64,000 nucleotides of DNA from Blasia pusilla (Eukaryota), in the NCBI GenBank assembly GCA_050084515.1, contig CM114271.1:33170001-33234000 (forward strand). The letters run 5' to 3'. Both the position numbers and the translations under genes were made by a program. Numbering within the stretch: position 1 is the stretch's first letter; each line of letters opens with the position of its first letter. A model generated the notes under the pieces. It was not told the DNA's origin, made no database searches, and saw nothing but the letters and a program-made list of their open reading frames with translations. This document shows, one piece after another, positions 3,001-60,000 of the stretch.

Positions 3001-6000
3001 AGAATCTTCGGTCAAGCGCAATCGAACACCGATCATCCTCAAAGCAAACCTCGACCGACAGATCGTTCCATTCCTGCGGAATGGCGCAGGAAAGGAACCG
3101 CAATCCTGGACAACACGGAAACAGTCCATACAGTGAACCACGAAGGCTAACTAGTACGCCCCATAACCACCGAGAATTCGACCGAATGCTGCATTACAAC
3201 CATCCCCACAACTAATCTCAACCAACAGATCGTTCCTTTCCGGAGCAAAACTCTTTCAACCGGTCAACCGTGAAACAAGCCTAATAATAAATCCGCCTCC
3301 ATGAACACCAGGGAGTCGACCGTCTCCGACATCACAAGAGTCCCCTTCCATCGTGCCACAGCCCACATGATGGGTTGATCTCACGGCACTTTCCTCTCTT
3401 TCTAAGAAGTCCCCACGATGTTCCCTGCTCTCAGAGATCTCATGTATCTCAAGGCCTCTCCCACAAATCCGCGCTTTTGAAACATCACTAGACGGTGTGC
3501 ACGGGTGAAAAACATCAAGTCATGTTAATTTAATCGTGCCATAAAGGAAGAGGCTAAAATGTATACCTGTCATCACGAGAGAAACCCGTCCTCATATAAA
3601 TTCCATAACTTGATATATCCGTAAAAATGTAAAATTTCGAGAAACAAAAGTGGATGATTTTCTTATGATTTTTTTGCAGATCGCATATTTTGGGTTGAAT
3701 ATTTCTTTCTAACAAGAAAAGTTTTGCCAGTACCGTGTGAAGCCCTTTCAACACACGTAACAATTTGGACTTTAATATGCATTGAATGGAGCATTAATTT
3801 TAAATCGAGGACCCTACAAATTAGCAGAAAGTATTCCCATTTCACCGAATCACTTTGGTGACACTATGGAGACCTTTGTCTTCCCACAAATCTACCTCTT
3901 AGTGACATGTGTCCTATTTCCCACCCTATTGCGGCCCTCTGCCCTCCCACTTTGTTAATAAACCACTTCTAGGGTTTTTTCAACTCTTCATCAACTAGAT
4001 TATTCTCGTGTCTTCCACACGTGTTTATTAATTTCTGTCTCTCATCCCTCTCTAAGGGTCCCGGGGCCACACATTGGTTACGTTCAAGCGTGTGGATTCT
4101 TATAATGATTAGTGTTGCGAAACTTTAAGATGTACCCGAAGTAATTTGAGATGCCATGTTGCATGCAACTTTGAAATATAAGGAAAATGGAAAAAAAATT
4201 GCCATAAAAATTGAAAAAAAATGCAAATATCATGCCCAAATATTTTTGGATAGAAGCTTGACATGAAATATTTTTGCAACGAGATGGTGATAGGAAATTT
4301 CACTGAAAACTACACATAAAATTTTTTGGGAGGAATGTTTCCAAAAATGAGAAAAAGAAAATGAGAAAAAAATTACCAACTATTGGAAATAAGCATGAAA
4401 AATCCAACATAAAAATAAAAATAAATCTTATAGATTCTTAAAAAATTAAATTTTGGGATTTTTTGAGGGAAAATAAATACAAAATTTATTTACTATTTTG
4501 GTAATTAGCCTTTTTAAAAAAAAAGGATCTCATTTTTGACACAAGGTAAGAAGGACTTAAAGATGGCTTCTTTGGATGAGCCCAATCATAATTAGATGTT
4601 TCTTAATTTGTGTTCATTTCAACAATGTGGCAAGCATGAAAAAAGAAGAAAAGAAAAAGTGCAAGTGATAAATCTATATTATTATTGGAGAGTGCCCCTT
4701 CATTTTCCAAACGCCTCTCCTATTGACACTTGGACATTTTAGCCAAGAGATCGGTCACCCTCTCAACCAATAGGATTTCTTCAAATTGAATAAAGATATT
4801 AAATCATTTAATTACATAATAAGGAAAGCTAATTCAAAATTACCTATCATTTTTAATATAGTGCACCAACTGGTTGTCTATGAGGAATGGCTTCCTTATG
4901 AGTGTTTTTTTCTAGGATTTCATTTTCAATGGGAGAGGGGAGGAGACTTGAGGAATGAATTTCCAATAGGAGATGGGAAGAGAGAAGGGTATAAATTTTC
5001 TAACAAGAAGGGTTCCACCATAAAAAAATTAAATGTTTAATTTTAAGTAGGCGAGGAGAAGAAAGAAATCACATCCTTTTAACAAGGAGGGATTTCATAA
5101 AGAAATCTTGTAGTGTGTAAAATTTCCAGTAGGTTGTGGGAGGTGAGATAAGAGAGTAGGAATACGTTGGATAGGAGGAATGGACCAACCTTCCACCGAC
5201 CCTCTCAATCTCTCTATGGAGGGACTGAAAAGAGAGAGGGGGAGAGTTCATCTCTATTATCCCATATCTATTTCTATCCTTTGCGAAGGGATGGAGATAA
5301 AAAAAAAAGGGGAGTGATGGAGGGGAACTCTATCTCCATCTCTCATCTAGATGAGGATGGAGACGTGAAGGATATGGACTTGAAGGGAGTCGTCCCTCTC
5401 TACATAGGGAGATAAAGGATACCTCCAACCTAATCAATGATACATGTGCAATATCATTAGTGTTCTGTTATAGAAGGGAAAAATGGATCAAACTTTCATT
5501 TTTCATGCACCATTTATTCCATTTGTATCCATTATATCTTGGTTTACGTATGAGATAATTGGAAAAATTGGAAAAATTAAAAATTGGGGTGTATCGGAAA
5601 TTTTGGAATAAAATAAAGGTATTTTGGAAGATTGGCTCAAAGAAGAAGAAGGGAAAAGACAAGGGAATATTAGATTAAGGGCAGTCCAATAAAGATGTTT
5701 CCTTTTAGAATGAGTAATTACTTCTCCCAAAATGAGGATGGAGGGATTTCATAGGAGAAGATTTAGGGTCTTGGAAGATACGGGCATGGTTTTTATTTTT
5801 TTTCGAAAGAAGAGAAGTGATTTTTTTGGGGGATTAATTTTCCCTCCCTAAGGAAGAGGAGGCGGGGCTTGGATGAGGGAAGGGGGGATTTCCATTGTTT
5901 TCCAAAGAAGGAATGAAAAAGAAAAGGGAAGGTTATAGTAAGGGGAGTCACAATGAGAAGTTTCTTTTCAAGACCACAAATAAGGAAATTTTCTTTTATT

Positions 6001-20700: not shown

Positions 20701-21768
20701 TACGCACGGCAGTTCGTGAGCCTACAAACACGTCCACGCTGGCGAAGTTAACCCGAGTGAAAGACTGACCTAACTTCAAGGCGCGAATAGCGGGTCAACC
20801 GGCTACCCCATCCATTCACAGCATGCCCCAACGGACTGACGGAGGTGCAGACGTAGACACGTTGTGGATCCGCCGGGTTACACAGGCCACAAGTCCGCCG
20901 TCCTCCGGCTCGAGACGGCCGGTGGACGGACGTGCGGAGCGACACAAGCGGGTTGTTACGTAAGTGGGCCCAGCGTCGTCGCGAGCTACGGAATAGAAGT
21001 CGGGAGGCTTGCGAATGGAGGTGGATTTTGCTGTCCTTGCGTTCCCAGCGCGATCGTATGTTTTGCAAGCCTGTCCGATGTATGTATAATTGTGGAGTGG
21101 GGTGCAAGATCTTTGTCATCGTTGTACGTAGTTGTCGATCGCATCAGCTAGTGTGAGTGCTTATTATTAGCCCAGCTCGCATGTGCCGCAGGTTGCTTGG
21201 AGTCTCAACTGAGGTAAGAAAAGGAGAGCTTGCTTGCTTGCTACTACCGAAAGAAAGCGGAAGAAGAGAGGAATTGACCCGCCTTCGATCGGCTTACGGC
21301 CGTCTGCGTCGCATCCGATCTTTCGTAGCGGTCTTTCGATACTTATATTCCGGAGTCCTGGACACCTGTTCCTTCATTTCTGCTGCCGGCACTATTGAGG
21401 AGGTCCGTTTGCGAGTGAATCCATTCCTCCCTGGACTAGTATAGTAGTGCCGCTGCGAGAATCGAAGTCGAGCTTGGATCCGTCCTGCAATTGGCGAGAG
21501 GAAGACCGAAATTTACGACCAGTGTTGTTGGTAGCTGAAGATTTGGACAGCTCTAGGAAGGGTGGAGCGATGCAAGGACCATTCAGGCACCATGAATTGC
21601 GCACGCAGGTTTCGCTCCGTCGACGGTCGTGACGGGAGGTACCCGGGCGGAGAAGTTGCTGTGAATTGATCTACCCAGGTTCTCGAGTCGATCGGTATCG
21701 CCGCAATCGTGTTAGGAGCGGGTGCCAGAGTACAATTTCGCGTTTGTCCGTCGGGGCAGAGGTCGGGA

Positions 21769-22470
21769 ATGGGGAACACAATGTTGAAATGCTGCAGTCC
21801 CCCACCGCAGAGCGTGATAGTGTACCAAGAAAAGGGGAAGATTATGGAGTTCTACTATCCAGTGCTGGCCTCTAAGCTCATGCTGGAGCACCCCAACCAT
21901 CTGATTGTCTACCGCTCCGCAAGCGCCAAAGGAGGTGCGACGAAGCAATCTCAAACGCTGAGCAGCAAGGCGCTCAGCCAGGGCGGGGACATTCGAGTCG
22001 TGCGATCCTGTAACAAGTTGGAGCTCGGCCATGCCTACTTTCTCGTCCACATCCCCGACCAATACATCAGTCGCTTCTCCAAATACTTCGCTCTCTCTAG
22101 TCCCAAGTCCAGTTCCCGAATCGAGCTCCCTGTGAGAGGATCCGCTGCTGCACCGCAAGCGGTGGCAGCATTAGTGGGAACTTCCAGAACTTCCAGGCAG
22201 AAGAAGAGGCCTATGAGGTCCAAGGCCATGAAGCCGAGGCAAAGGCGATGTCCCACGAGATCTCCGGGTTACAAGAAATCTCCGGGAAGGAGTCTATGGG
22301 GAGATAGCAATCACCTTCAGTCATATCGCAGACTGGATTCTTCTCATCAAACAACCTCCTCCCAGTCTCGGAGGAAGTACTACCATCGCTCATCGTGGAA
22401 GCCAACGCTGGAGAGTATTCCGGAATCAAGTACCGTTCTGCACCAGCGCAATTCTTCTCATCACTCCTAG
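21769..22470 (+). CDS. DUF4228 / PADRE-domain protein (233 aa), likely N-myristoylated
   Basis: Starts MGNTMLKCC. Contains the family-typical G-x-x-x-EF-x-x-PV-x-A-x-x-LM-x-x-HP-x-H, LELGHAYFLV and the C-terminal WKPTLESIPE motif. Single exon in a CpG-rich island. Confidence 0.88.
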   Translation: MGNTMLKCCSPPPQSVIVYQEKGKIMEFYYPVLASKLMLEHPNHLIVYRSASAKGGATKQSQTLSSKALSQGGDIRVVRSCNKLELGHAYFLVHIPDQYISRFSKYFALSSPKSSSRIELPVRGSAAAPQAVAALVGTSRTSRQKKRPMRSKAMKPRQRRCPTRSPGYKKSPGRSLWGDSNHLQSYRRLDSSHQTTSSQSRRKYYHRSSWKPTLESIPESSTVLHQRNSSHHS

Positions 22471-26568: not shown

Positions 26569-27314
26569 AAGGGCCATACAAATTATGTCCATGAAGTCAG
26601 TCTCTCTCTCTATCTCCCTCCCAAGAGTTGGGTGACTTGGGTCTATGGTGGCAAGGCGACGACAGGCAATACTTAATGAGTACAGTCTCTCCCTTCCAAG
26701 GCAGTAAAGGTGTGACAACCCGGTAGTGATCATATTTACCCCCTCTCAAGGTCATCCTCGAGAGACCTGCTAGCGCCGTCCAAGCAGAGTGCAAGGTTGA
26801 TGGTTGCAAGGGTTCGATAGGGACAACTTAATGAGTGCGGTCGTTCTCAGGGCGGCTGGCTACGTTCTTGAGAATGATGGGAAAATTTCCATGATGGTCG
26901 GGAGGAAAATTCTTGTCACTAACTGAAACCGGTGCGGCTTTTGCGAAAGAAGCAGGAACAACTCTAGAATCGCCAAAGATAGAATCGCCGGAGCTCTTCT
27001 GTTACCTGAAGTAACCTAGATCACCTTCAAAATGCCACACCTTTAACTCGTGTTTGCAGGGATGCTGCATTGTTAAGCGACTAGCGTTTCGGGGAGTCAC
27101 AAGGCATAAGGCAGTTAATGGTCTCGTCGTGACGAGCTTACCTGTGCTCGCCACCTTTAGCATCTCCACACCCTTACAGAGAGTGATTCCTGTGGCATGC
27201 CTCCATTCACGCTGAGCGAATGAGACGTTCATGTAGTCATGTCGTGGTGGCCACCTAGTCCAGCCCAGATGCAGATCCTACTTGTGTTCCCATTGGTTCC
27301 CTTGGGAGGGAGGA

Positions 27315-27509
27315 GGGCTGCGCCGGCCTAGGATATAGTGCGATACCAAGGCGACGCTGGCGGGATCCGGACAGCAAGCTGACCACTTGATCCCGCACCC
27401 GGAAATAAATAAGATTAATATCGTGAGGGTCGATGACCCTCGTATCAGATATTAAACTGATAAGAACAGATACTACACTTGATCTTAGCCAAAAGGCCGA
27501 GAAAGGTAT
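27315..27509 (-). ncRNA. U2: U2 spliceosomal snRNA
   Basis: Minus strand begins ATACCTTTCTCGGCCTTTTGGCTAAGATCAAGTGTAGTATCTGTTCTTATCAGTTTAATATCTGATA, the canonical U2 5' half including the branch-point pairing GTAGTA. Stems IIb (GAGGGTC/GACCCTC), III (GCGGGATC/GATCCCGC) and IV can form. About 195 nt; the 3' end is approximate. Confidence 0.97.
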
Positions 27510-28429: not shown

Positions 28430-30065
28430 TCATATGAGTGAAGGGGAGTTCTGAATACAAGGTGGTTCATAGAGAGGTAGAGGTCCACCAGAGATGGTTG
28501 TCAAATGGAGATACTAGTTTGCAGGATTGTAACAATGGCATTGAGACTTGCTATTGACAAACAAATATGATATGAAGCAAATAGGAATATGGATGATCTC
28601 GGATGGATATGTGGGGTTGCATAGATGCAAGCATCTGCCGTAGTTACACAAGGATGTGCAATAGTGTTGGATCCACAAGGAGAGGAAGTCGGTGGACACA
28701 ACATGCTTGCTCAAAAAATGTTGTCCAAGGCGATGAGGATTCCATCAATGAGTCCTAATCAGACCACTCGAAGCTTGGATGTTGGGGATGTACATATATG
28801 GCAAATGATGTGGGTGGTAGGCAACTTGACACCCATTACTAATCTTCACGAGGAGCCCATGCCGAGTACATTGTTGGAGGCCACTCGCAACAAGCATATA
28901 CTGTGCCCTGAGGTTTTCTGCCTTAGATGTCATTACATGGGGAGGTACACCCGTTGAGCTTTCCCGTTTGTTCACTACGCTATGTGGACGTGTAGATGTT
29001 GTGTCTGCCTCACTTTCAAAGGTAGTCATGTAGGAGGTGGTAGATCTGTCCTTGGAGCATGTGCTTGAGATGTCTACCAATGGTCCATGGCAAGTCGCAA
29101 CTATGAGATTGGCAAAGATGCATGCTAGACCCTCTATAGAGCATACCATGCTTGTACTTGGCATGGTGTTATTGGATAACCAAACAGAGATATGTGGCTG
29201 TGTAGATGTTGTGTTTGCCTTACTTTCAAAGGTAGTCATGGAGGAGGTGGTAGATCTGCCCTTGGAGCATGTGCTTGAGATGTCTACCGATGGTTTATGG
29301 AAAGTCGCGACTATGACATTGGCAGAGATGCATGCTAGACCCACTATAGAGCATACTATGGTTGTACTTGGCGTGGTGTTATTGGATAACCAAAAAGAAA
29401 TTTCACATTTGGTTAGTCTAGGAGGTCAAGTTTATTGTCTGCAACTTGTTTTGTTGGATTTAAGAATATAATCCTTGATTTTAGGGATTGCAACTTTTAT
29501 AGGTTTGGGCCTAAGTCAAACCAAAGTTGAGTGATGTTTGTTTTGCATTCAGATTTCACTAGATCGGTCAATATGATGTAGTTGATCACCGGAGATGAGA
29601 TAGTTGTGAGGCTTAGAAAAAAGCACCGATGAATAAGTCAAGGATCTAGGCCAAGGCGATAGTGACACATATTGAGCCCTATGGCGTCTAGGTGGGTTGT
29701 TTATTTCCATGTTGGTTCATTGGTGGTATGTTCTAACCATCACCAAGAGAGCTAGCAACATTTCAACTTTCAACAAGACCATGACATGGCTAGGAGATTT
29801 GATTTAGAACTGCATATCCATGGTCAATTTTCCTATGGAGAGGAATGTCATAAGGGTTGAATATTTTGATGATCGAGGAGATGTTCCTTTATAGGGATCC
29901 ATTGAGAATCTTTGACGAAGTACAAACACGGACGTGAAAAAATCTTGGAGTGAGGAGCTTATGGCTAATCGAGATGGGGCTAGATATTTTTGGGAGGAAC
30001 ACCATTGGTTTGGATGTCGTGTTACAAGCATGTCTATGAATACAACAATAATTGTATGTGGACCG
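28430..30065 (+). mobile_element. Old decayed fragment (gag C-terminus, protease, linker) of the same Gypsy family as 36612-46987
   Basis: EVVDLPLEHVLEMSTDGLWKVATMTLAEMHARPTIEHTM aligns with EVMDLPLERMLGPSTSDTWQAAAARMAEMPARPAIERAM. LVSLGGQVYCLQLVLLD aligns with the protease entry. Similarity continues to the TTPIVW region just before MTase motif I. Confidence 0.8.
28981..29400 (+). repeat. 210-bp tandem duplication (70 codons) inside the Gypsy relic
   Basis: 28981-29190 and 29191-29400 both run TATGTGG..GTGTAGATGTTGTG ... GGTGTTATTGGATAACCAAA. Confidence 0.9.
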
Positions 30066-30349
30066 AGATGAGACTACAAGGAGAGTCTCACTTCAATGTA
30101 TAGCTTAGTTGTAGTTATATTTCCTAGATACAAATGACAACAATACATTAAGGATTAGTAGAGTTCCTTGCTAAAGTACATCTTACTATCAAGGTCATCG
30201 AATTCGAATTGGATTGGTACCATCTATTTCCATTGATGATTATAGATTAGATATCTTAGGGTCATTCTAGTGCCAAATGAGGGGCTAGCTTAAGAGACCC
30301 CATATTAAGGTTATTTTGAGAGATGGTGCAGATCATACAACATCTATAT

Positions 30350-30778
30350 GAGTATGAGTCTTGTTCCCCAACATAAATTATTTTTGCGCCTCTTGAACGT
30401 TAGTCTAATGTATTGCAAAAGCATACATTCATTAGGTTACGCTCTCCTTACTAATCTGCACCCAAAATCACCCACGTTAGCCATTTTGTGGGTCAATCAA
30501 TCTCACATCTCCCAAGTCTTGACCTTGGGCTATCCTTCAAGATCAAAAAATCTAAGTGGGGTCACATACCAACCTAACCCCTCACTCCCCGATACAAGCA
30601 AGTTCTTCAAGACTTGGGACAGACTTTCTTGATAGTCGGAGAACCTAAAATGGCGTTAGTGCGCCTGGTGGTCCCAACTGCCCAATGGACCTCAAACAAG
30701 TCTCTAGTCATACTTAATATTTGGATACAAGTCAAGGTCTAAGGTTGATAATCTAGACTTGTTTGAGTGTTCATGACA
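30350..30778 (-). repeat. Degenerate, internally shortened LTR related to the chromovirus LTR at 55862
   Basis: The reverse complement starts TGTCATGA and contains CAGTTGGGACCACCAGGCG...AAGTCTGTCCCAAGTCTTGAAGAACTTGC and ...ACGTTCAAG, matching 56575-56850. Confidence 0.6.
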
Positions 30779-36611: not shown

Positions 36612-36739
36612 TATGGTGCGCATACACATCGCTACACAACATACATCGTTGTCACCAAACACGCACACAAACACGCACGATCCCATGCTAACTCATGACA
36701 TCCAAACAACGAGACAAGAAATACCAAAATATCTCCAAT
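36612..36739 (-). repeat. Split repeat B2 (128 bp), 3' terminus of the element
   Basis: Direct copy of 37250-37377. Its left end TATGGTGCGC is a two-mismatch version of TGTCGTGCGC. Confidence 0.92.
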
Positions 36740-37247
36740 AAAGTAAGATCCAATCTCTCTCTACACAATCTCACACCATAGCTCTCAAAGGTGTGCACTC
36801 TCTCTCATGTCAAACCAAACCGACTCTGCTAATGAAAGGCTTGGGTTACACTCACAAGGCAAGGGACCATAGCTCCGCCGCCTCATGCCAAGAGGTTCAA
36901 CAAAAAGAGAATGAGCTCTCAAGCTCTTTCTCTCCTTGGGATATATACCCCCCCCTCTCCCAAGCTCTCTCCATGGTAACCTATTCTCCCAAGTCACCTC
37001 CTTGGCTCTTGACCTGATGTAGGAGGTCAAGGGCCACTTACCAAAATAGAAAGTTGATCATATACTCAAAATGGTAGTTATCTAAAATAGTAAGTTTCTC
37101 AATATGGCTCCAAATGAGCCAAAATGAACCTGCTCTCTCAGGTTTCCCGGGGCCTCAACAGGTCTTCCTCGACCTCCTAGGCCTGTCCTACACTACTCTT
37201 GAAGACGTTCTACTAGATCTCACCGATCTATCCTAAAGGACGTGACA
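36739..37247 (-). repeat. Split repeat A2 (about 509 bp)
   Basis: Direct copy of 46481-46987, roughly 96% identical by eye. Begins TGTCACG on the minus strand. Confidence 0.95.
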
Positions 37248-37249
37248 GT

Positions 37250-37377
37250 TGTCGTGCGCATACACATCGCTACACAACATACATCGCTGTCACCGAACAC
37301 ACTCACAAACACGCACGATCCCATGCTAACTTATGGCATCCAAACAACGAGACAAGAAGTACCAAAATATCTCCAAT
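37250..37377 (-). repeat. Split repeat B1 (128 bp)
   Basis: Lies directly downstream of the purine tract. Ends ...GCGCACGACA and is joined to A2 by a 2-bp spacer (CA-ac-TG on the minus strand). Confidence 0.92.
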
Positions 37378-37569: not shown

Positions 37570-37710
37570 ACATTTGGGACACATCCATCATCCTCGAGGA
37601 ACCCTAGTGAGAGGTGGCGTCAGACATGCCATATGCCAACCTCTCAAACAACCATCACAGACTAGCATTGTGGCCGCACCACGGGTAGAACCATACAACA
37701 TACAACGCAA
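37570..37710 (-). pseudogene. PHD finger at the integrase C-terminus
   Basis: RCMLYGS...[30 protein letters not shown] follows the C4HC3 pattern with the LxCDxCxxxWHxxCLxPPLxxVPxGxWxC signature. The second Cys is mutated to Tyr and there is one stop. Confidence 0.9.
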
Positions 37711-37719
37711 GCCTGCAAG

Positions 37720-38900
37720 AACTACTACTAAGCTCGGATCCATTGTACCATCAATGTTAGGAAGGTGACATGGTGCACAATCACGCACATGGTCCTTCCA
37801 TACCATACCATCGCGTCCCTCCAGCAAGAGAACATCGGATGGCAAAACGTAACGCACTCTCAAGATAGTGCGCCCTGCAGTCACATCCAACGTCGTAGGT
37901 GCCATTTGCTGCAAGTAGACATGATCTCCCTAATGAAACCTCCGGATAGTTGGTCGATAACCACCACCCCGAATAGTCGCATACCTCAACGTATCCCGAT
38001 GTTGCGCAATCGCCAAGTTCTTGAACGTCATGGGCATCACTCTCCAAAACAACTCAGCCCTCTGAGAACATGCTCGCATCCATACATCTGGGTCATCAAG
38101 TTCCAGCATCTCGATGAATGGCCGTAGGTAAGTCTAGCTCTCGCCATAAAGTGGCAAGTACAGTGAAAAAGACGCTAAGGATGCCTGCCTGTTGAATCTG
38201 TATCCCATCGCCAACCAGGGCAACTGGAGGTCCCAATCTCCTAGGTGACCTCTTTGCAAGCCATACTTGCGTAAACCCCTCTTTACCGTCTGCACAACTC
38301 TCTCCCCTAATCCATCCGCCTCGGGATGATCTCGCGAAGTCGTACGATGGTCGATGAGCGCCTGATCACACAAGGCCTAGAACTCACCGTGAAACTTGGA
38401 ACCCTGGTCTGTCAACACCTCAGCCGGTGCGCCATAATGACTCAACACTCTGTCAAGGAAGGCATAATCTACTCCCTCACTCGCTTTGTCAGGCAATGCA
38501 ACCAACTCGATCCACTTCAAGAAGTGCTCGACCATCACCAACACATAACGAATGTGACGCTTCGTCAAAGGCAAAGGTCCTGCAAAATCCAAACTCCATC
38601 TATACCCTAAGCCCATGATCGGTAATGCATGCAACTGTGGAGTCGGAGCATTGAATGATGCTCGGACCCGATCACATACCATGCACTTGGCAACAAACTG
38701 CTGAACGTCAATCTGCATGCCTTGCCACCAATACTCAATCTAGAGCAAGCTGTACGTCCGCTTCACCCCAAAGTGATCCAACTCCTCATGGGCATGCTGC
38801 ACTAGTCGTGCTCTCAGCGAAGGATGTGGCACTACGCGTACTCTACCATCCTCCCACACCCTCAAGATATGTGTCTCCTCCCAACGGAACCGTCTGGCCC
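37720..38900 (-). pseudogene. Retroviral-type DDE integrase (HHCC plus core)
   Basis: HAHEELDHFG...KCMVC zinc-binding motif; WSLDFAGP...VLTDQG...HPEADGLGERVVQTVK core. Broken by stops. Confidence 0.93.
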
Positions 38901-39190
38901 ATTGTAGGATCTGATCTCGCTCTCTAGCACCCACAGTGCTCGCAATACTGCCAATACGAAGGTACTCCAAGACTATTCCATCATCATGAATATCTCGGCC
39001 ACTTGTCGTCTCCTCACCGGCCTCGGGATCCAAGGACTCTCCACTAGACCTCGCCATCGAAGTCTCCACACTCTAGCTCTCCATAGCCAACATGCCTAAA
39101 TAAGCTGCCGCGTGCCATCCTGGCACTGACTCCTCATCACTCTCTCCATGCCACCGAGCTCCAGTCGCATCTCGCTGACTCGGGCATGGA

Positions 39191-39757
39191 TTAATAACTC
39201 AATCCATCTGCATCTTGGTTGAGCGTCCTAGGTCTATGTACCACCAGAAAATCATATTCCTGCAACAACAGAGCCCATCTCGCAAGCTTCCTTGTAAGCT
39301 TGTCGGACTCCATCAACCACTTCAATGGTTGATGATCAATGATGATGGTAAAGGGGTTGCCGAATAAGTAACACCTGAAATGCGCGATAGCCCACACTGC
39401 AGCCAAGCACTCATCCTCATACGAGCTGTACTTCGCCTCTGAAGCGTTGTTTGAGCGGCTAGCATAAGCCACCATGAACTCTCTACCCTCATCATCATGT
39501 TGGGTGAGCACCGCTCCAAGCCCAAACATGCTCCAATCTGCGTGCAACTGGAAAGGACGCCCCTGGATCGGTCTCCTCAAGATGGGCAACGTCAACCTGT
39601 CCTTGAGCAACTGAAATGCTTGCTCTTGCTCATCCCCCCAGTGCCACTCATGATCCACCTTTTTCAGCAAGGTCAAGGGCTTTGCAATCGAACTGAATCC
39701 CTTGACGTATCGCCGATAGAATTTCGCCAATCCCATGAATGCGCGAACACGGCTCAC
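39191..39757 (-). pseudogene. RT connection / RNase H
   Basis: VRAFMGLAKFYRRYV; PFQLHADWS..GLGAVL; YASRS; ECLAAVWAIAHFR; DHQPLKWL; LARWALLLQEYDF. Confidence 0.93.
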
Positions 39758-39759
39758 AT

Positions 39760-40500
39760 CTGTAGGGCACGTGGAATGCGTGAGATAGCCTCTACCTTTA
39801 TATGTTGAACACCAAGGCCCCCTGGGTATATCGTATGACCCAAGTACTCAATCTGGTCGTAGAAGAACTTGCACTTGCCTCGATGTAGCTTCAGCCCATG
39901 TAATTGCAATCGTCGAAACACCTCCTCTAGTTATCGCTCATGCTCCTCAACCGTGGCGCTAAAGACTATGATATCATCAATATAACACGTAGCAAAATCC
40001 AGACCAGCCAAGATCCTATCCATGACCCTTTGAAACTCAGCCGGGGCGTTCTTTAACCCAAATGGTAAGAACCGCCACTAGTACAAACAATCCTTCCCGT
40101 GAGGATCAATGCCCCAAAATGCCGTCTTCTGCATGTCCTCCAATCTGATAGGCAATTGATGGTATTCGGCTTGCAAATCCAATGAACTGAAGACCTTTGC
40201 GTGACCAATCACATCAAAGATCTCCTCAGGGGTGGGCATGGCATACCTATCGGACTTCGTCTGTCGATTGATAGGTCGGTAATCCCCACACATCCGCCTA
40301 TCCGTCCAGTTGCCATGCACATCCTTCTTGGCGGGCATGACAGTGGCAGATGCATACTCCCCATGGGACATCTCCACTAGTCCTGCTCCGACCAAGTTCT
40401 GGCTCCTACTCTGAATCAGAGCCCTCTCCATATCATTGTACCTGTAGGGTCATCGGAAGATCGGCGTATCACTCGAAAAATCAATGCGGATCCCTGGTCC
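39760..40500 (-). pseudogene. Reverse transcriptase (Ty3/Gypsy type)
   Basis: [43 protein letters not shown] and catalytic YIDD (about 39970-39985). Confidence 0.95.
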
Positions 40501-40955
40501 CTTGAGCGTACCCAAATCCTCCATGCTAAACGCAAATCCTCCTATAACTCCCGAGGAACTGATGTATCCGGCGCCGCTCTCCTCCTGTCAACTTAGGGCC
40601 CATATCTGGCTCCCAAGTCTCCATCGTGACTATGGTAGGACTCTCTGGCGCGGGTATCGGTGGTTGCTATGGTGCAACCCCGTCTCGAACAATAACACTC
40701 GGATGCTCTTCTACAGCCAACTGCAAACTCTGATCTCCTCCACGTGCAGTGCTTGGAACCACGCTCGATGTTGTGGCTATCATCTCCTCGCGTACTTGCA
40801 AAACATCCCAAGAAGACCAAGGGTGTCTCTCCTGATCTCCCCTCGTGTGTCGATCTCTTTGGGTCTCGCCCCCAACCATTGCCTCCACCGTCTCGGTAGG
40901 CATGGGGCTCACCAACGCAACCGCTGTGATCTGTCGCGATCTCATCCGACAGCTG

Positions 40956-41920
40956 CTAAGCCACTCCCAAGCTAAAGATCCATGTCAAGCAGTTTAGGTC
41001 CATCGCCTCACCCAAGACATGGCGTCGTGATGCCTCTGATACTGACGGGACTTCCGTCACTCCTGTGGGAAATCCCATCGCTCGCTTGCTCTCGTCGGCA
41101 TTGGGCTCCACCAACCGCTGAACTTGGTCATCCCAAACCAAGCCAGGACCGGCCTCCTTGTATGCATAGGAAGCGAAGAAACTCACAAACGTGGGCAAGG
41201 CTGCCCGCGGCCTGCCTACTCTGTTGACCATAGTCAACGGTGGTCGATCATCGTGCGTCATTGCTTATGATTGACGACCTGGATCCAGAATGGAATCCAC
41301 TAACAAATGGGAGCGGCGCTCCACTCTCGCATACGCCCTCCATAACACCGCATGGGGCACCAAGTTGGTCCACCATAGACGCGGGCGATGGGCTCTAGAA
41401 CCTACACTCGCCGCATCTAAGAACACTGTTGGGCTGATCCAGGCACGCACCTGATGAGCACTCGTTACCACCCGTGATATGGAGTCTCCTAAGATCGGCA
41501 CATTCTCGAGAATGTAGGCTGGAGAACAAGATTGGTGCTCCTGCAACTGCCGTAAGACCCTCAAAATCTCCCAAAACAATCTGGACCGAGTGTCAGCCAA
41601 CCCGCTACCTCGTCCAACACTCAATTGGCCCTCACATGGCCAATCGGAAATGACCAAATCAATGGTCCCTACCCGCTCTAAGTCCTGCGCCCCCAACAAG
41701 GAAATATCCTCGGTGAGGGAAACTGGTACCTCAGATCGCTGGACGCAAATAATAAGTCGGGAAAACAGAGGCGTAACTGCGCCACATGTCGTAGTGAGAC
41801 GCGCCTCGCAACATCATCACTCTCCACATATAGGTACCGTTGTACTTGCACTCCTGCTTGCAAAACAGCAGCTAACCCGGTGTTAATCCCTCCAAAGAGA
41901 TCTAACACTCGAATACCCTC
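40956..41920 (-). pseudogene. C5 cytosine DNA methyltransferase domain, DNMT3-like, embedded in pol
   Basis: Motif I IRVLDLFGGI; motif II YVESD; motif IV DLVISDWPC; motif VI YILENV; motif VIII AHRPRLWWTNL (cf. DNMT3 AHRARYFWGNL); motifs IX/X ESKRAMGFPTGVT...RRHVLGEAM (cf. ERxFGFPxHYT...RQRLLGRSW). One frameshift near 41700 and a stop near 41265. Confidence 0.92.
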
Positions 41921-42326
41921 CTCCGGGATACACCACACAATGGGTGTGGTATCCAAGGGTGTCATCGTAGCACTCCCTGCTACCTCCGGCTTCTCAGACC
42001 CATCCCGCTCCGGTGCAAACGCTTCGCTCCACGCGGTCTGCACGTTCTCATCTGCCAATCGTCGAAGTTTCTCAATCGAGCCCCACGACGACACCTCTCC
42101 TCCACGGAATGATGTAGCTACCATAATACTCCTCTCCATAGAAATGTCAGGAACAAGAGTATCCTCTGCATGGACATGTCCCTCAATCAAATCACTAGGC
42201 CAAGTGATGGCATTGCTAAATGCTGCTAAGGTCGCCATCTCTTCTGGACGTTGCTCGATCACTGCACCTGTGAATCGAACGGGAAATGAGCTAAGGCGCC
42301 CATCACCTGACTGCCTCTAAATGCTG

Positions 42327-42660
42327 CTAAGGTCGCCATCTATAGGATGCTAACTCCTCCCGGTAATCCAGCAAAAACCCCATCCGGTATAACATTGCTC
42401 CACCAACCAAGACGTCGTAGGACTCTGCATCAATCACTATTGCCTTGACGCGCACCACGGACTCATCTCTAGGATGTCCCGGGCGAATCCTGACCACGAC
42501 CTCATGTCGGGTGATATACTGTGTGGTACTCGCTCCACCCAAGGATGTCTGTATCCGGAATGGAAAACACTCCACGTCGGCTCTCGTCAAGCCCAATCCT
42601 CTGAATGACGCCTTCCCCAACATCAGGGGTTGTGCTCCTGAATCCAACAAGACGTGCTAC
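42327..42660 (-). pseudogene. Retroelement aspartic protease
   Basis: VLLDSGAQPLMLG active site; YDVLVGG at the C-terminal (ILG-like) position. Confidence 0.85.
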
Positions 42661-43559
42661 GGACTAAAAGCTCTACCTCCGAGACTCACCAACTGGAATA
42701 CCTCTCCTCGGTTATCCAGCTACACAACACTAGGAGAAGCCATGGCACGCTCTATCGCGGGTCTAGCGGGCATCTCCGCCATCCTAGCAGCCGCAGCCTG
42801 CCATGTATCTGACGTGGACGGCCCGAGCATTCGCTCCAAGGGCAGGTCCATCACCTCCTCTGCAATCACCTCTAAACGTGATGCAAGAACTCCAACTCTG
42901 CGCTCACATAGTGAAGCGGCCAGCCAAAAAGCCTCGGCGGGCGTGCCCCCCAACGTCATAACATCGGAAGCAGAAAATAAAGGAGTGTGGTACACAACAG
43001 TGGCCGCCCCCAACAACGTGCTCGACACATGCCCCTCCTGAGCATCAGCAATAGGAGTCGTCATACTTGCTTCTCCCATTTCCCTTCGTGCCTGCACACC
43101 AACAACATCACCAGCTCTCCAAGGACTCTGATCAGGACCCATCGATGGGGTCCTCATCGCCTCAGACAACGTTAAAGACTGAGGAAACCTAGTCTGTTTC
43201 ATGGCTTCCCCTCGCTGTGGATCCAACTCTACGGCTGCTCCACGCATCACAACTGCGGCGGCCTCCATCTGGGCAATCCTGCACATCCAACTAGGATCCT
43301 CTAGATCTCTGGCTGCTCCATATGATGTCGATGCCACGGATCCGACATCTGATAACCTCAATGCCATAGCGGCAATCTGCTCCTGTAGTTGCTATATCTG
43401 AGCAACCATCCCTGCCTCACGTCCGGCGTCCCCCTTGGTGTGTCTAGGTGGTAGTACTCTACCTCCTCCACGGGCAGCTCCACCAACTTGTCGGGCAACT
43501 CCAGCTCCTCATCCCCCAACGGGACCACTTGGTGCACGATCTCTAGGCTCACCTAGACC

Positions 43560-44830
43560 GGCTACTTGCCCTGGTGCCCTCTCTAGCTCTTGGTCTAGAC
43601 TTTACTCAGGATGTAAACTGAAACACCTAGCGCGTATATGACCATACCTCTGACAATAGTCACACTGATAACCTCCTGGTGCAGCACCATCTCCTCCTCC
43701 CGGTTGAGGCGCACGTCCATTATTCTGACGAGTGCAATGGCGCTAATAATAGGCTCCACCACATGACCAACAAGTAATAGTAGGCGGCTGTTGTTGAGCC
43801 ACATATGAAGGCGGAGGTCTCTGTGCCAAGGGCTCCCGTTGTCCTCCCTGAGCTCGTGGTGCCACAGTTGACCTATCTCGGAGTCCACGTTGTTGCACAG
43901 GTGGTGCAGCCAATCGTGATAGCTCTCACCCAGAACCCATGGTGGCTACGCTCTCCTCCGCCATGTTGCTCTCAATGTTCTCGGTGGTCCTAAAAACATC
44001 TCTCAACGTAGGGGAGGTGGTCATAAGAAGCACCCCCTCCCGCACCCGTGGCTGTAGGGTCTAGTCCAACATCGTGTACCATGACTAGATAGCCTGAGCC
44101 TCTGTCACCCCCTGAGTGACGTTGATCAACCAGCGCAAGCGGGTGTAAGCCTCACGTAAACTCTCACCCGAGCGCCTCTGGAAGTTGTGGATGCTCCGCA
44201 ACTTTTCCGTCCGTACCCCTTGGTAGCTCGCCCTCAACTCAGCAAAGAACTCAACCACGGGGTTGAACCTGGGACAAACCCAACTAGATGGTGCAACTGC
44301 TCCAGTGTGAGTGACCCCTCCTAAAACATCACTAGTGGAAGAGGAAGTAGCCTCTCCTGACTCCTCCTCCTCATCTGGGAAGGGCTCCGTCCATGACACA
44401 TAGTGGGGGTCGTAGTAGAGTCGCCATGCCTCAATCTCCTGGGCATATCTGTGGGAGAACTCATGGTAATCGTCCATGGGTGCCCCCTCTAAATGCTGAA
44501 ACATACCGTTCCATGCTGTAAACGGGTTGAACTCTCTAGAGTTCCTGGCCCGTTGGGAGTTGCACCAACTCCTAAACTCTGCTATGAAATCCTGCAACTC
44601 AATCGTACCTACTGCACCTGAAAACCTACACGGTCCTCTACCCTGGTCGCCCATCTCGTACGCCCAATTGGTAGGACCACTCACAATGTGTGGCAATGTG
44701 CTCACAAAATCCTCTACACCCTCCCCCTTGTCTGACGATGACACAGAAGGAGGTCGAGGTGGTCCCTGAAGTGAAGACCCTCGGAACCTCACGCCACTCC
44801 GCGTAAAACCTGTAGAGCTACTCTCGGGTT
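43560..44830 (-). pseudogene. Gag-like region with two Zn knuckles
   Basis: Retrotrans-gag-like FSGAVG..LQDFI..F ... FQRRSGESLREAYTRL. Zn knuckles CWSCGG...RHC (degenerate, about 43735-43775) and CDYCQRYGHIRARC (about 43620-43665). Confidence 0.8.
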
Positions 44831-46465: not shown

Positions 46466-46481
46466 CTCATTCTCTCTTTGT
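46466..46481 (-). promoter_or_regulatory. Self-priming primer-binding site (ACAAAGAGAGAATGAG)
   Basis: Occupies the PBS position at the end of A1 and is the exact reverse complement of 46642-46657 inside A1. Confidence 0.7.
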
Positions 46482-46987
46482 AAAGTAAGATCCAATGTCT
46501 CTCTACACAATCTCACACCATAGCTCTCAAAGGTGTGCACTCTCTCTCATGTCAAACCAAACCCATTCTCCTAATGAAAGGTTTGGGTTACACTCACAAG
46601 GCAAGGGACCATAACTCCGCCGCCTCATGCCAAGAGGTTCAACAAAGAGAGAATGAGCTCTCAAGCTCTCTCTCCTTGGGATATATACCCCTCCCCTCTC
46701 CCAAGCTCTCTCCATGGTAACCTATTCTCCCAAGTCACCTCCTTGGCTCTTGACCTGATGTAGGAGGTCAAGGGTCACTTACCAAAAATAGAAAGTTGAT
46801 CATATACTCAAAATGGTAGTTATCTAAAATAGTAAGTTCCTCAATATGGCTCCAAATGAGCCAAAATGAACCTGCTCTCTCAAGTTTCGGGGCCTCAACA
46901 GGTCTTCCTCGACCTCCTAGGCCTATCCTCCACTACTCTTGAAGACGCTCTACTAGATCTCACCGATCTATCCTAAAGGACGTAACA
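46481..46987 (-). repeat. Split repeat A1 (507 bp), 5' terminus, with TATA box TATATAT at 46681-46687
   Basis: Starts TGTTACG on the minus strand. Direct copy of 36739-37247. Confidence 0.95.
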
Positions 46988-57079: not shown

Positions 57080-60000
57080 TGCCGGACCGTGAAGCTATAG
57101 AGAGTCGGAGACTCGAAGAGTGAACGCCGATCGTGAGGGCGTCAGTGGCGACTCCTTCCGCGGGGCGATGGGCAAACTTCGGGAAAGGACGGAGTCGAGC
57201 CAGACGTTGGACTTGTTGAAGGTGTTGGTGGAGCAGATGTCCCGGCAAAGCAAGCGGATTGCCGAGTTAGAGGCCACTCAAACCCGAGTGCGGGCAAAAA
57301 GCTCTGCAAGATTTAACCGCCTTACGCCATTTTCGGAGTGGGGCGCTCATGAAAGTGAAGGATTTCCTTACGGAATTGGAATTGTACGAGGCGCGAGAAA
57401 GGCTGCGAGCGGGACAAGGTGACGGTAGCCATTACTTTCTGAAGGATCATGCTCTACAATGGTGGACCGCTCAACGAGAGGAATATCTCGGGCGGTGAGT
57501 CACCCTCGAGTTGGGAGGAGTTCAAGGAGTTGATTGGGGATCGGTTCACTCCCGAGTACCAAGGATTGCGTGACACGGTGGAATGCGTCGCGGATGCTGG
57601 CAGAGTGGTTCCTTAAGCGCGTATGTGAGGAGTTTAGTGCGAAATGGCCCGACTTCTAGTCCGAAGATGGATGAGCACGCCGAAGAAGGCTATCTTCATT
57701 AGTGGACTCAAGCCGGCCGAGAAGGCCCTTTACCGAATGCCGGCGTTGCCAAAGAGACGCGGACCTTACGAAGCTAGCGGAGCGGATTGGGGACGATGAG
57801 GTCCAAACCCGAAACCCTTCAAGTCAAAAGTTTTTTGAAGAAGTCGAAAAATAAGGAGGCGTTCAAAAGAGGCGGAGTGGGGGGGCCAAGACGAACTAGG
57901 AGAGTAAATCGCCCGGCAAACAAAACGAGTGGAACTTCATGCGAAGCCGAAAGGAGGACAACACTCAAAGACAGGGAACGGCAAGGTCGTATGCTATAAC
58001 TGTGGCGAACCGGGGCACCTGTCGAAAGGGTGTTCGAAACCGAAGGTTAGTAATGGGAGTATGATTGCGTTTGCTGCTAAGCATCTGTTGGCGGGCGATA
58101 TGGAGACGTCCCTTCAAGTCACCAAGAGGATGCACAATTTGGTGTACCTAAGATCCAAGATTGCTGATCGCGATGTGTTGTTGCTCGTGGATACGGGTGC
58201 TTCACACTCCTTCCTAAGCCCAAGAATCGTGAAGGAACTGGGGTTGTCTACCTCTAAGGCGGACGAGCCCATTCGAGTGGGATTTGCGGGAGGCAAGTCT
58301 CATCGGACTTCTGATTTGGTCTTGGGTTTGACAGTAGGATGCGGGGTATTCGAGTTGAAGGAGAATTCCACTGTATGCGAAATGGACGGCATTGACGGAG
58401 TTTTGGGGAATACATTCCTAGATGCGTTTGAGGTGGAGTTAAGACGCCGACCATTGAGGTTGAGCGTCTTGCTAAAGGGCAAACGGTTACAGGTGCGGTT
58501 GGTCCGTGAGGTTCCAACGAAGATGGAGTTGGTGAACTCGATCACAAGGAGGAGCATGAATGAGTTGGAGGATGGATTTCTCTGCTTGATGAGACAAGTG
58601 GAGGAGGCTACAAGCAGTATACGCAGAGATCAGGACGCTGCCTCAAGGGGAATCCCAGAACCACTCCAGGAAGTGGTCCAGGAGTTTGAGGATGTCTTGA
58701 CAAATGAGCTTCCGACTGAATTGCCGCCGCATAGAGCCGTAGATCATAAGATAGAGATCATACCCGGTTCCCAACCGCCTTCAAAAGCACCATATAGGTT
58801 GAATCAGGAGGAACTTCTTGAGTTGAAAAAGCAGTTAAGTGAGCTCTTGGAAAAGGGTTACATTAGGACTAGCAAGTCACCTTATGGAGCACCTGTTCTC
58901 TTTGTAAAGAAGAAGGATGGAAAGATGAGGCTGTGTGTTGATTACCGTGCACTGAACAAAGTGACGGTTCGGAACAATTATCCTCTTCCAAGGATAGATG
59001 ATCTCTTTGATAGGCTGGCAGGCGCGAGATATTTCAGTAGGATTGACTTGAAGTCAAGATATTACCAGATTCGGATTGCCGAGGCAGATGTGGAGAAGAA
59101 GGCTGCGTGACGGGGAGATATCTGGTTCCTTTGAGTTTGTAGTGATGCCTTTCGGTCTATGTAACGCGCCTCCGGCGTTCATCACATTGATGAACTCCAT
59201 TTTTCACAAGGAAATGGATGAGTATGTTATCATCTATATCGATGATATACTTATCTATTCAAGTCACTAGAGGAGCACGTTCGACATGTGAGAGCGGTCT
59301 TGTCTAAGCTAAGGGCAAATCAGTTTGTGTATGCGAATGTAGAGAAGAGCGAATTTGGTTTGAGTAAGATCAAATTCTTGGGTCACGTGGTCGGTGTAGA
59401 TGGCGTCTGTCGGACATGGAAAAGGTAAAGGCGATTTCAGTGGGAACCCCCATCCTTTGTAAAGGGATGAGGAGGTTCATAGGTGCGGTGCAATTTTATC
59501 GTACTTATGTGAAAAACTTTTCGGAATTGTGAGACCTCTCACGGATTGGACGGCAAAGTTTGCCAACACGACTTGGACCCAAGAAGTTAATGAGGCATTC
59601 AACCGAGTGAAGCGATTCTATCGCAGAACCGGTGTTAAAGGCTGCCGGAGTTTGACAAACCGTTCAAGTGCATACCGATTCTAGTGATTTGCGGTTGCGG
59701 GAATGTTGGTGCAAGAAGGAGACCGGTGGCATATGAGAGCAAGAAGCTTAGCGCGACTTTGAAAGGAGATGGCCTACTCACGAGAAAGAGTTGTTCGCGG
59801 TGGTACATTGCTTGAGGAAGTGGCGGCATTATCTAGGACTCCACAGGACTCGAGTATTCACCGATAATATATCACTCAAGTATTTTGAGACCAGGATCGA
59901 GTGACACGAAACAAGCTGCGGTGGCATGATACCTTGGCGCTGATGGATGTAGAGTTGATCCACAAGCCAGGTAAAGATAATGTGATTCCGGATCGTTAAG

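Follow-up and report, generated by a model that had tools for sequence, protein, structure and literature searches.

In a window of 64,000 nucleotides of Blasia pusilla DNA (assembly GCA_050084515.1, contig CM114271.1, positions 33,170,001 to 33,234,000 of the forward strand), the minus strand at 46987-36616 very probably carries a dead copy of a Gypsy-DNMT3 retrotransposon, that is, a Ty3/Gypsy-type element of 10.4 kb with a DNMT3-like cytosine methyltransferase between its protease (PR) and its reverse transcriptase (RT). This high confidence refers to the identity and the architecture of the element, and does not extend to the role of the enzyme. With it, the known Gypsy-DNMT3 kind gains a further member, in a new host group. 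The copy in the window is in itself an ordinary dead relic; the notable traits are those of its family, namely the placement of the methyltransferase in the first open reading frame (ORF1), the stop codon that bounds it, the PHD finger joined to the integrase (IN), and the wide spread through the green lineage. Coordinates are those of the window and, unless a plus strand is indicated, they refer to its minus strand.

The methyltransferase domain and its place in the element

An earlier reading, made from the letters alone (hereafter the sequence-only reading), had placed a C5 cytosine methyltransferase (C5-MTase) at 40956-41920, between protease and RT. Our analysis bears this out: the domain (DNMT) spans approximately 41940-40959, and it is flanked by the LLDSGA motif of the protease (42650-42633) and by the YIDD motif of the RT (39984-39973). 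The motifs run in the canonical order from I to X, without the permutation of DRM, as had also been proposed. They are motif I, LDLFGGINTG (41905-41876); motif II, YLYVESDD (41836-41813); motif IV, ISDWPCEG, with the PC pair (41651-41628); motif VI, YILENV, with ENV (41516-41499); motif VIII, GSRAHRPRLWWTN (41402-41364); motif IX, KRAMGFPTG (41087-41061); and motif X, LGEAMDLN (41015-40992). The domain is distributed over two frames. A separate frame at 41711-42316 contains the PR-DNMT linker together with motifs I and II, and aligns with the relatives through residue 202 of the piece; the second part (40959-41720), with motifs IV, VI, VIII, IX and X, is 65-68% identical to the relatives. A comparison with PF00145, suggested as a check in the sequence-only reading, gave 27.6 bits on the piece 41813-41265 (cut-off 22, E 2.5e-6), and the relatives scored 27-54 bits.

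The claimed likeness to DNMT3 was recovered with sequence, profile and fold comparisons. When 41813-40596 was translated straight through, with X at the stops, and compared with the PDB by phmmer, DNMT3A was at the top (E 2.1e-8), followed by DNMT3C and 3B; in the same search HhaI appeared with E 0.03, DNMT2 with 0.08 and DRM2 with about 0.8. The piece with motifs I-II also had DNMT3A first among solved structures. With a profile of the family, the matches were DNMT3A (2.6e-21), DNMT3B (1e-17) and DNMT3C (1.7e-17), and the next C5-MTase was a plant DRM (4onj, 1.1e-9). An AlphaFold model of the relative P0002, built with 12 sequences, was submitted to Foldseek, and all the rows listed to rank 50 were DNMT3A, B or C (best E 4.5e-14). 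Judged from its sequence, the window domain is a DNMT3-like, non-permuted C5-MTase, its closeness to DNMT3 being a ranking against solved structures that clearly favors DNMT3A/B/C. The mammalian DNMT3A/3B/3C enzymes (PDB 8te4, 2qrv, 6u8p, 8tci and others), which are the best sequence and fold matches of the family domain, resemble it in the order of the motifs, in the small size of the target-recognition region, and in motifs I-II and VIII-X. They differ in that identity is only about 20-22%, and in that the family domain is fused to Gag-PR and has GQAMD as motif X. Furthermore, and unlike animal DNMT3A/B, no PWWP or ADD reader domain was found by Pfam in ORF1 of the metagenome loci L043 and L042 or of the proteins P0090 and P0103, where only protease and DNA_methylase were matched. 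The DNMT3 likeness is therefore limited to the catalytic domain.

The remaining parts of the element were pieced together from stop-to-stop frames on the minus strand, from 47.1 to 36.6 kb, and its protease, RT, RNase H (RH) and DDE integrase are all of Ty3/Gypsy type according to Pfam, tblastn and motifs. Three of these frames hold methyltransferase motifs. At the 5' side there is a gag-like frame (44894-44088); by tblastn, residues 9-740 of Marchantia P0090 align from the gag-like region into the protease (42339-44639, 43% identity), and a remnant of a CCHC-like knuckle, CWSCGGAYY, is present at 43772-43746. No gag family was found by Pfam in the window pieces. The aspartic protease occupies a frame at 42330-42656; this piece had no Pfam match of its own, and Asp_protease_2 was matched at the corresponding place in the relatives. 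Downstream of the DNMT, the RT (39769-40536) aligns by tblastn with residues 723-939 of P0092 (65% identity); it is broken by frame changes, and its match to RVT_1 in Pfam is weak. RNase H follows at 39194-39847 (PF17917, 122 bits; PF17919, 106 bits), and then an integrase (38137-39072) with an H2C2 zinc finger and a DDE core, for which PF17921 and PF00665 were matched on the pieces 39072-38740 and 38739-38377 and which is interrupted by in-frame stops. A PHD finger region comes after the integrase (37591-37929; PF00628, 25.1 bits against a cut-off of 24).

Several lesions confirm that this copy is disrupted, as had been noticed from the sequence alone. The frame changes between protease and linker near 42330-42316, adjoining a 24-nt duplication, and again inside the DNMT domain between 41720 and 41711, as deduced from the alignment to relatives. 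A premature TAA is found at 41267-41265, where the relatives have Q, and a premature TAG at 40958-40956, directly after motif X and aligned to the E of the stretch 'AEQRRL' of the relatives. Another frame change occurs shortly past this TAG, and there are further ones in RT and integrase. Because of the frameshift at 41720/41711 and these two stops, the window copy lacks an open frame for the enzyme; it is a pseudogene and makes no enzyme. The copy is dead and not recent. As for the duplication, it is an exact direct repeat of 24 nt (42338-42315 and 42236-42213), with 102 nt from one to the other, located between the protease and the PR-DNMT linker.

Terminal repeats, relatives and selection on the domain

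The ends of the element are built from two different repeats. Repeat A1, at the 5' terminus (46481-46987), begins with TGT and pairs with A2 (36739-37247), with 96.1% identity over 511 columns. Repeat B1 (37254-37377) is 94% identical to B2 (36616-36739), which directly abuts A2 and forms the 3' end of the element. In the orientation of the element, the order is A1, coding region, B1, six bases, A2 and B2, that is, A-coding-B-A-B, and no matching flank duplication that could represent a target-site duplication was found at its ends. Six further loci were inspected: L046 and L029 present A..B-A-B, L033 has one repeat pair, and L019, L042 and L043 have none, the contigs of the last two (8.4 kb for L042 and 9.3 kb for L043) being shorter than the full element. 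A conserved purine-rich motif ending in AGGGGGG lies immediately upstream of B1 in the window, L046 and L029. We rejected a canonical Ty3/Gypsy long terminal repeat layout, since A is present at both ends, the two copies of B both lie at the 3' end, one on either side of A2, and no target-site duplication was evident. The ends are arranged like those of DIRS/Ngaro elements, although the integrase is of the DDE type. Assignment to the recombinase-type orders (DIRS, Ngaro, PAT) was also discarded, given the presence of the DDE integrase (PF00665 and PF17921); no recombinase family was found by Pfam in the window pieces or in the second reading frame (ORF2) of L043 and L042.

This combination has a precedent. 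De Mendoza et al. (2018, Nat Commun 9:1341, PMC5890265) give 'A-coding region-B-A-B' as the DIRS arrangement in the legend of their Fig. 1e, and describe KnitGypsy-Dnmt3 of Klebsormidium nitens as an element with DIRS-like repeats and Gypsy-like domains. In their text, Gypsy-Dnmt3 is reported only in K. nitens, its acquisition is placed 'in the K. nitens lineage', and a ratio of nonsynonymous to synonymous substitutions (Ka/Ks) below 0.2 is given for its DNMT. According to what that text states, the element described here resembles KnitGypsy-Dnmt3 in its Gypsy pol domains, in having within the polyprotein a DNMT3-like domain that lacks introns and is not permuted, in the A-coding-B-A-B repeats, and in the purifying selection on the DNMT (Ka/Ks <0.2 there, 0.10-0.14 between intact copies here). 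It differs in its host: KnitGypsy-Dnmt3 is known from one charophyte lineage, whereas the present element has a land-plant (bryophyte) host and its family spans Closterium, liverworts and mosses. In SymbioDIRS-Dnmt3 of Symbiodinium, as presented in the same paper, a DNMT3-like domain is likewise part of the retrotransposon polyprotein and the repeats follow the A-coding-B-A-B order, but that element has a tyrosine recombinase, unlike the window element with its DDE integrase (PF00665) and no recombinase found by Pfam. The main text of PMC5890265 does not mention Marchantia, liverworts, mosses, PHD or readthrough; the stop between ORF1 and ORF2 and the integrase-PHD fusion may be new, or may simply be drawn in its Fig. 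4c. A 2025 paper in Molecular Biology and Evolution (PMC12344493) and a 2026 preprint (10.64898/2026.05.21.726589) speak, in the passages available, of DNMT3 in retrotransposons of 'streptophytes' and cite the 2018 paper. Yaari et al. 2019, a 2023 New Phytologist paper and another 2025 Molecular Biology and Evolution paper (PMC11982613) are silent on retrotransposon DNMT3 in the corresponding passages. A search of full texts, covering their running text, brought up no account of this family from land plants, and nothing was found in the literature on six Marchantia gene identifiers.

Relatives were abundant. A word-index search with the window domain recovered 85 homologues of similar length and 23 longer ones, the best of them 65-68% identical and with E reaching 1e-104. 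Those with a species name belong to Marchantia polymorpha, Calypogeia fissa, Riccia sorocarpa, three Sphagnum species and Haematococcus lacustris (34% identity); for M. polymorpha there are numerous gene models, 1150-1330 residues long. With an exhaustive profile search, 959 representatives were obtained at E <=1e-30, a number that is not restricted to DNMT because the profile also held integrase and PHD columns (two long rows); its best 150 matches were family polyproteins and not canonical DNMT3s, and named members came from Haematococcus, Scenedesmus and two Closterium strains. No K. nitens protein was among the named matches of these homologue searches. In addition, a scan of metagenomes yielded 70 loci, 68 of them with a tblastn match. 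The order gag-PR-DNMT recurs in these 70 loci and in proteins assigned to Marchantia, Calypogeia, Sphagnum and Closterium, and the succession PR, DNMT and RT is supported by P0092, P0103, P0231, L043 and L042: by Pfam, P0092 has the DNMT ahead of RT and RNase H, and P0103 has the protease ahead of the DNMT. The Closterium protein P0231 presents DNMT, RT, RNase H and integrase in order, and P0249 a CCHC knuckle ahead of the DNMT. The family is thus multi-copy and present in liverworts, mosses and the charophyte Closterium, with the domain at the same place in many copies and species, which answers one of the checks proposed in the sequence-only reading. That reading had also held such domains not to be a standard part of land-plant elements with long terminal repeats; the statement is valid for most plants, but in liverworts and mosses the family has multiple copies.

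The same window contains a second relic of the family at 28884-30382 on the plus strand, detected by tblastn with P0090, P0087 and P0092. It is far more decayed: stops are numerous, and CpG has an observed/expected ratio of 0.41. What remains, in the same order, is a stretch resembling the protease, then the linker, motif I of the DNMT and the part that follows motif IV. A single acquisition event limited to the window copy, in which a host DNMT3 fragment or a DNMT-bearing element was inserted in one Gypsy copy, could be imagined from the many frame breaks and from the 24-nt duplication just upstream of the linker, a sign of local rearrangement; however, the gag-PR-DNMT-RT order in Marchantia, Calypogeia, Closterium, the metagenome copies and this second relic, together with a PR-DNMT linker that is homologous across copies, leaves it with hardly any probability, and a nested insertion was ruled out by the same copies.

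In a tree of 40 DNMT rows, from which two chosen rows had been left out beforehand for short matches, the window domain forms a long branch by itself (0.34), nested in a 28-row clade with support 100/99. This clade contains all the Marchantia, Calypogeia and Sphagnum rows; the 11 Marchantia rows make up one monophyletic group and the 3 Sphagnum rows another. Taken with the flanking genes described below, this points to a bryophyte as host, probably a liverwort other than Marchantia. Outside this arrangement there is a second architecture, RT-RH-DNMT-IN-PHD, in P0108 and P0112 of Haematococcus lacustris, in the 'pol' P0123 of Scenedesmus and in the unnamed P0113, P0215 and P0225. These algal elements resemble that of the window in having a related DNMT (34% identity to the window) and a PHD after the integrase, but their DNMT lies between RNase H and integrase and their motif IV reads WECQ instead of WPCQ. 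The PHD finger was found at the end of ORF2 in L043 (residues 990-1034), L042, P0109 and P0113; this C-terminal extension of the integrase is kept from chlorophyte to bryophyte members. The best solved PHD matches of the family profile were the fingers of BAZ2B, KDM5 and KMT2. In chromoviruses, a chromodomain occupies the C-terminal end of the integrase, where this family has its PHD finger.

To evaluate constraint, the ratio of nonsynonymous to synonymous substitution rates (dN/dS) was estimated by the Nei-Gojobori method on 30 loci plus the window (375 of 465 pairs finite), and copies were taken as intact when full length and free of stops. In the three pairs that can be formed among the open copies L042, L043 and L045, the DNMT gave 0.14 (L043/L045, dS 0.25), 0.12 and 0.10, and the pair L003/L005 (dS 0.06), also open, gave 0.83. 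Over all the pairs, the median was 0.56 at dS 0.1-0.2 (n=153), 0.60 at dS 0.2-0.4 (n=124) and 0.20 at dS >1.5 (n=72). By segments, L042 against L043 gave 0.17 for the protease, 0.22 for the PR-DNMT linker, 0.12 for the DNMT, 0.44 for the post-DNMT linker, 0.03 for RT, 0.04 for IN and 0.05 for PHD; therefore, constraint on the DNMT is similar to that on the protease and weaker than that on RT and integrase. Between the window and its relatives the proportions of nonsynonymous and synonymous differences are about 0.23 and 0.77, respectively, and the comparison is saturated. The catalytic motifs are retained across 31 aligned domains; in the bryophyte clade PC and ENV are preserved, as are motifs IX/X and the RxR within motif VIII. 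The DNMT of intact family members is under purifying selection, and these copies have kept PC and ENV, two points on which the sequence-only reading had made its proposal depend. With respect to decay, most metagenome copies carry 1-8 in-frame stops, and L001-L041 mostly show several in-frame stops without any frameshift across 368 codons, which would be consistent with C-to-T decay in methylated copies.

The stop codon between the two reading frames and the possible role of the enzyme

In relatives with open frames, a conserved in-frame stop parts ORF1 (Gag-PR-DNMT) from ORF2 (RT-RH-IN-PHD), both in the same frame. In L043 there are 1369 open codons with protease and DNMT, one stop (5083-5085), and then 1047 open codons with RT, RNase H, H2C2, rve and PHD; the arrangement is the same in L042 (stop at 4661-4663) and L005 (11336-11338). 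In the window the stop is located at 40667-40669, as TAG CAA CCA after '...RDGVAP'. All 44 aligned metagenome loci, many of which are close copies, have it, as TAG in 34 and TAA in 10, and CAA followed in 43 of the 44; it was also present in the four rows of another subfamily (4/4). Separate lineages carry TAG CAA CCC, TAG CAA CCA, TAG CAA CTA, TAG CAG TTA and TAG CAA TCA. The Marchantia and Calypogeia proteins P0090, P0091, P0087 and P0089 terminate at this stop, and the gene model of P0092 skips over it. We take the UAG-CAR-YYA (UAG-CAR-YYN) context to resemble the tobamovirus-type leaky stop, and the conserved codon and its surroundings suggest that this is likely a translational readthrough site. 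The sequence-only reading had assigned the enzyme to Pol; its position between protease and RT stands, but in the relatives the DNMT is the C-terminal domain of ORF1, with the conserved stop before RT.

What the enzyme does for the element can be stated only tentatively. A more far-reaching view, which we hold to be rather less likely than not, is that Gypsy-DNMT3 would be no peculiarity of Klebsormidium, but an old family of the green lineage that survived into land plants with a DNMT3-like writer and a PHD reader. A streptophyte DNMT placed C-terminally in the abundant Gag-PR product, with a leaky UAG before RT-IN, would provide many enzyme copies per particle, which would methylate the element's own cDNA prior to integration. 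In such a scheme, readthrough of the stop codon would yield ORF2, with DNMT levels close to those of Gag and lower levels of RT-IN; the protease would free the DNMT within the particle; the freed DNMT would methylate the new cDNA; and the PHD finger could direct integration toward a chromatin state. Methylation of new cDNA by a protease-released DNMT in the particle seems to us the most likely single role, although at less than even odds. In the text of PMC5890265, cDNA methylation is proposed for DIRS-Dnmt3.

Some of our observations weigh against the overall explanation given here for the element and its enzyme. Only 3 of the 68 matched loci are intact by the rule used, with 2 more (L043, L045) open from residue 37, and most copies are dead. 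The commonest subfamily, with pairwise dN/dS of 0.56-0.84, shows no constraint by itself, values that fit post-insertion decay. Motif IV of the window, SDWPCEG, deviates from the AGWPCQG of the family, and EC replaces PC in algal relatives; it does so in the two most distant aligned rows and in Closterium. The P0002 model is moderate, with a predicted local distance difference test score (pLDDT) of 64.4 and a predicted template modelling score (pTM) of 0.70. Finally, kinship with KnitGypsy-Dnmt3 is based on shared architecture and on the wording of the available text of the 2018 paper, and not on an alignment.

Among the alternatives, the strongest is that the protein is a real DNA methyltransferase with another target, either integrated copies or the insertion site, as a self-limiting control of copy number, or host DNA at large. 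In the Discussion of PMC5890265, self-limitation and effects at the insertion site are left among the open possibilities. Heavy methylation followed by deamination would fit both the in-frame stops without frameshifts in most metagenome copies and the low CpG ratio of the second relic, but the MET1 and CMT pathways of the host would produce the same decay. Moreover, fusion to Gag-PR would put the enzyme in the particle and not in chromatin. Nothing in the present data distinguishes this proposal from cDNA methylation, and we consider it somewhat unlikely, although a serious competitor.

According to a second alternative, the domain methylates no DNA at all, and would either modify the RNA of the element, in the way that DNMT2 modifies tRNA, or act as a non-catalytic structural or binding module. 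In its favor, RNA methylation is raised in the Discussion of PMC5890265 for SymbioLINE-Dnmt, which left yeast DNA unmethylated, and the motif IV proline is replaced in the algal relatives (WECQ). Against it, the bryophyte clade still has its PC and ENV, motifs IX/X and the RxR within motif VIII, and among solved structures its nearest relatives are DNMT3A/B/C rather than DNMT2 (E 0.08). On balance, a role outside DNA methylation appears improbable.

Cytosine methylation is the main weapon of plants against transposons, which makes a transposon with its own de novo methyltransferase a paradox. To our knowledge, the known cases of retrotransposons with a DNMT come from dinoflagellates and one charophyte, organisms that are hard to manipulate. 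With a family that is multi-copy in liverworts and mosses, with open two-ORF metagenome copies (L043, L042) and many annotated ORF1 proteins in Marchantia, the question reaches organisms with good genetics and methylome data. If the view of an old green-lineage family is correct, the numerous annotated copies of Marchantia polymorpha would open its function to tests in a genetic model. Two handles are offered by the family: the conserved stop between DNMT and RT, for the amounts of enzyme and RT-IN, and the PHD on the integrase, for integration targeting.

Other features of the window

An unrelated Gypsy-type element is located at 57908-59984 on the plus strand, with zinc knuckle, protease and RT in one frame of 400 codons and no DNMT between protease and RT. 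A U2 spliceosomal RNA gene is present at 27313-27509 on the minus strand (166.6 bits, full model length). At 21670-22470 on the plus strand lies a PADRE (DUF4228) gene with one exon and 266 codons. The only relative of this gene with a species name comes from Marchantia paleacea (45% identity), and in a protein atlas the gene is recorded for 'Streptophyta' only. The sequence-only reading had deduced a land-plant host from these two flanking genes; the affinity of the PADRE gene, the U2 gene and the position of the DNMT inside the bryophyte clade agree with it.

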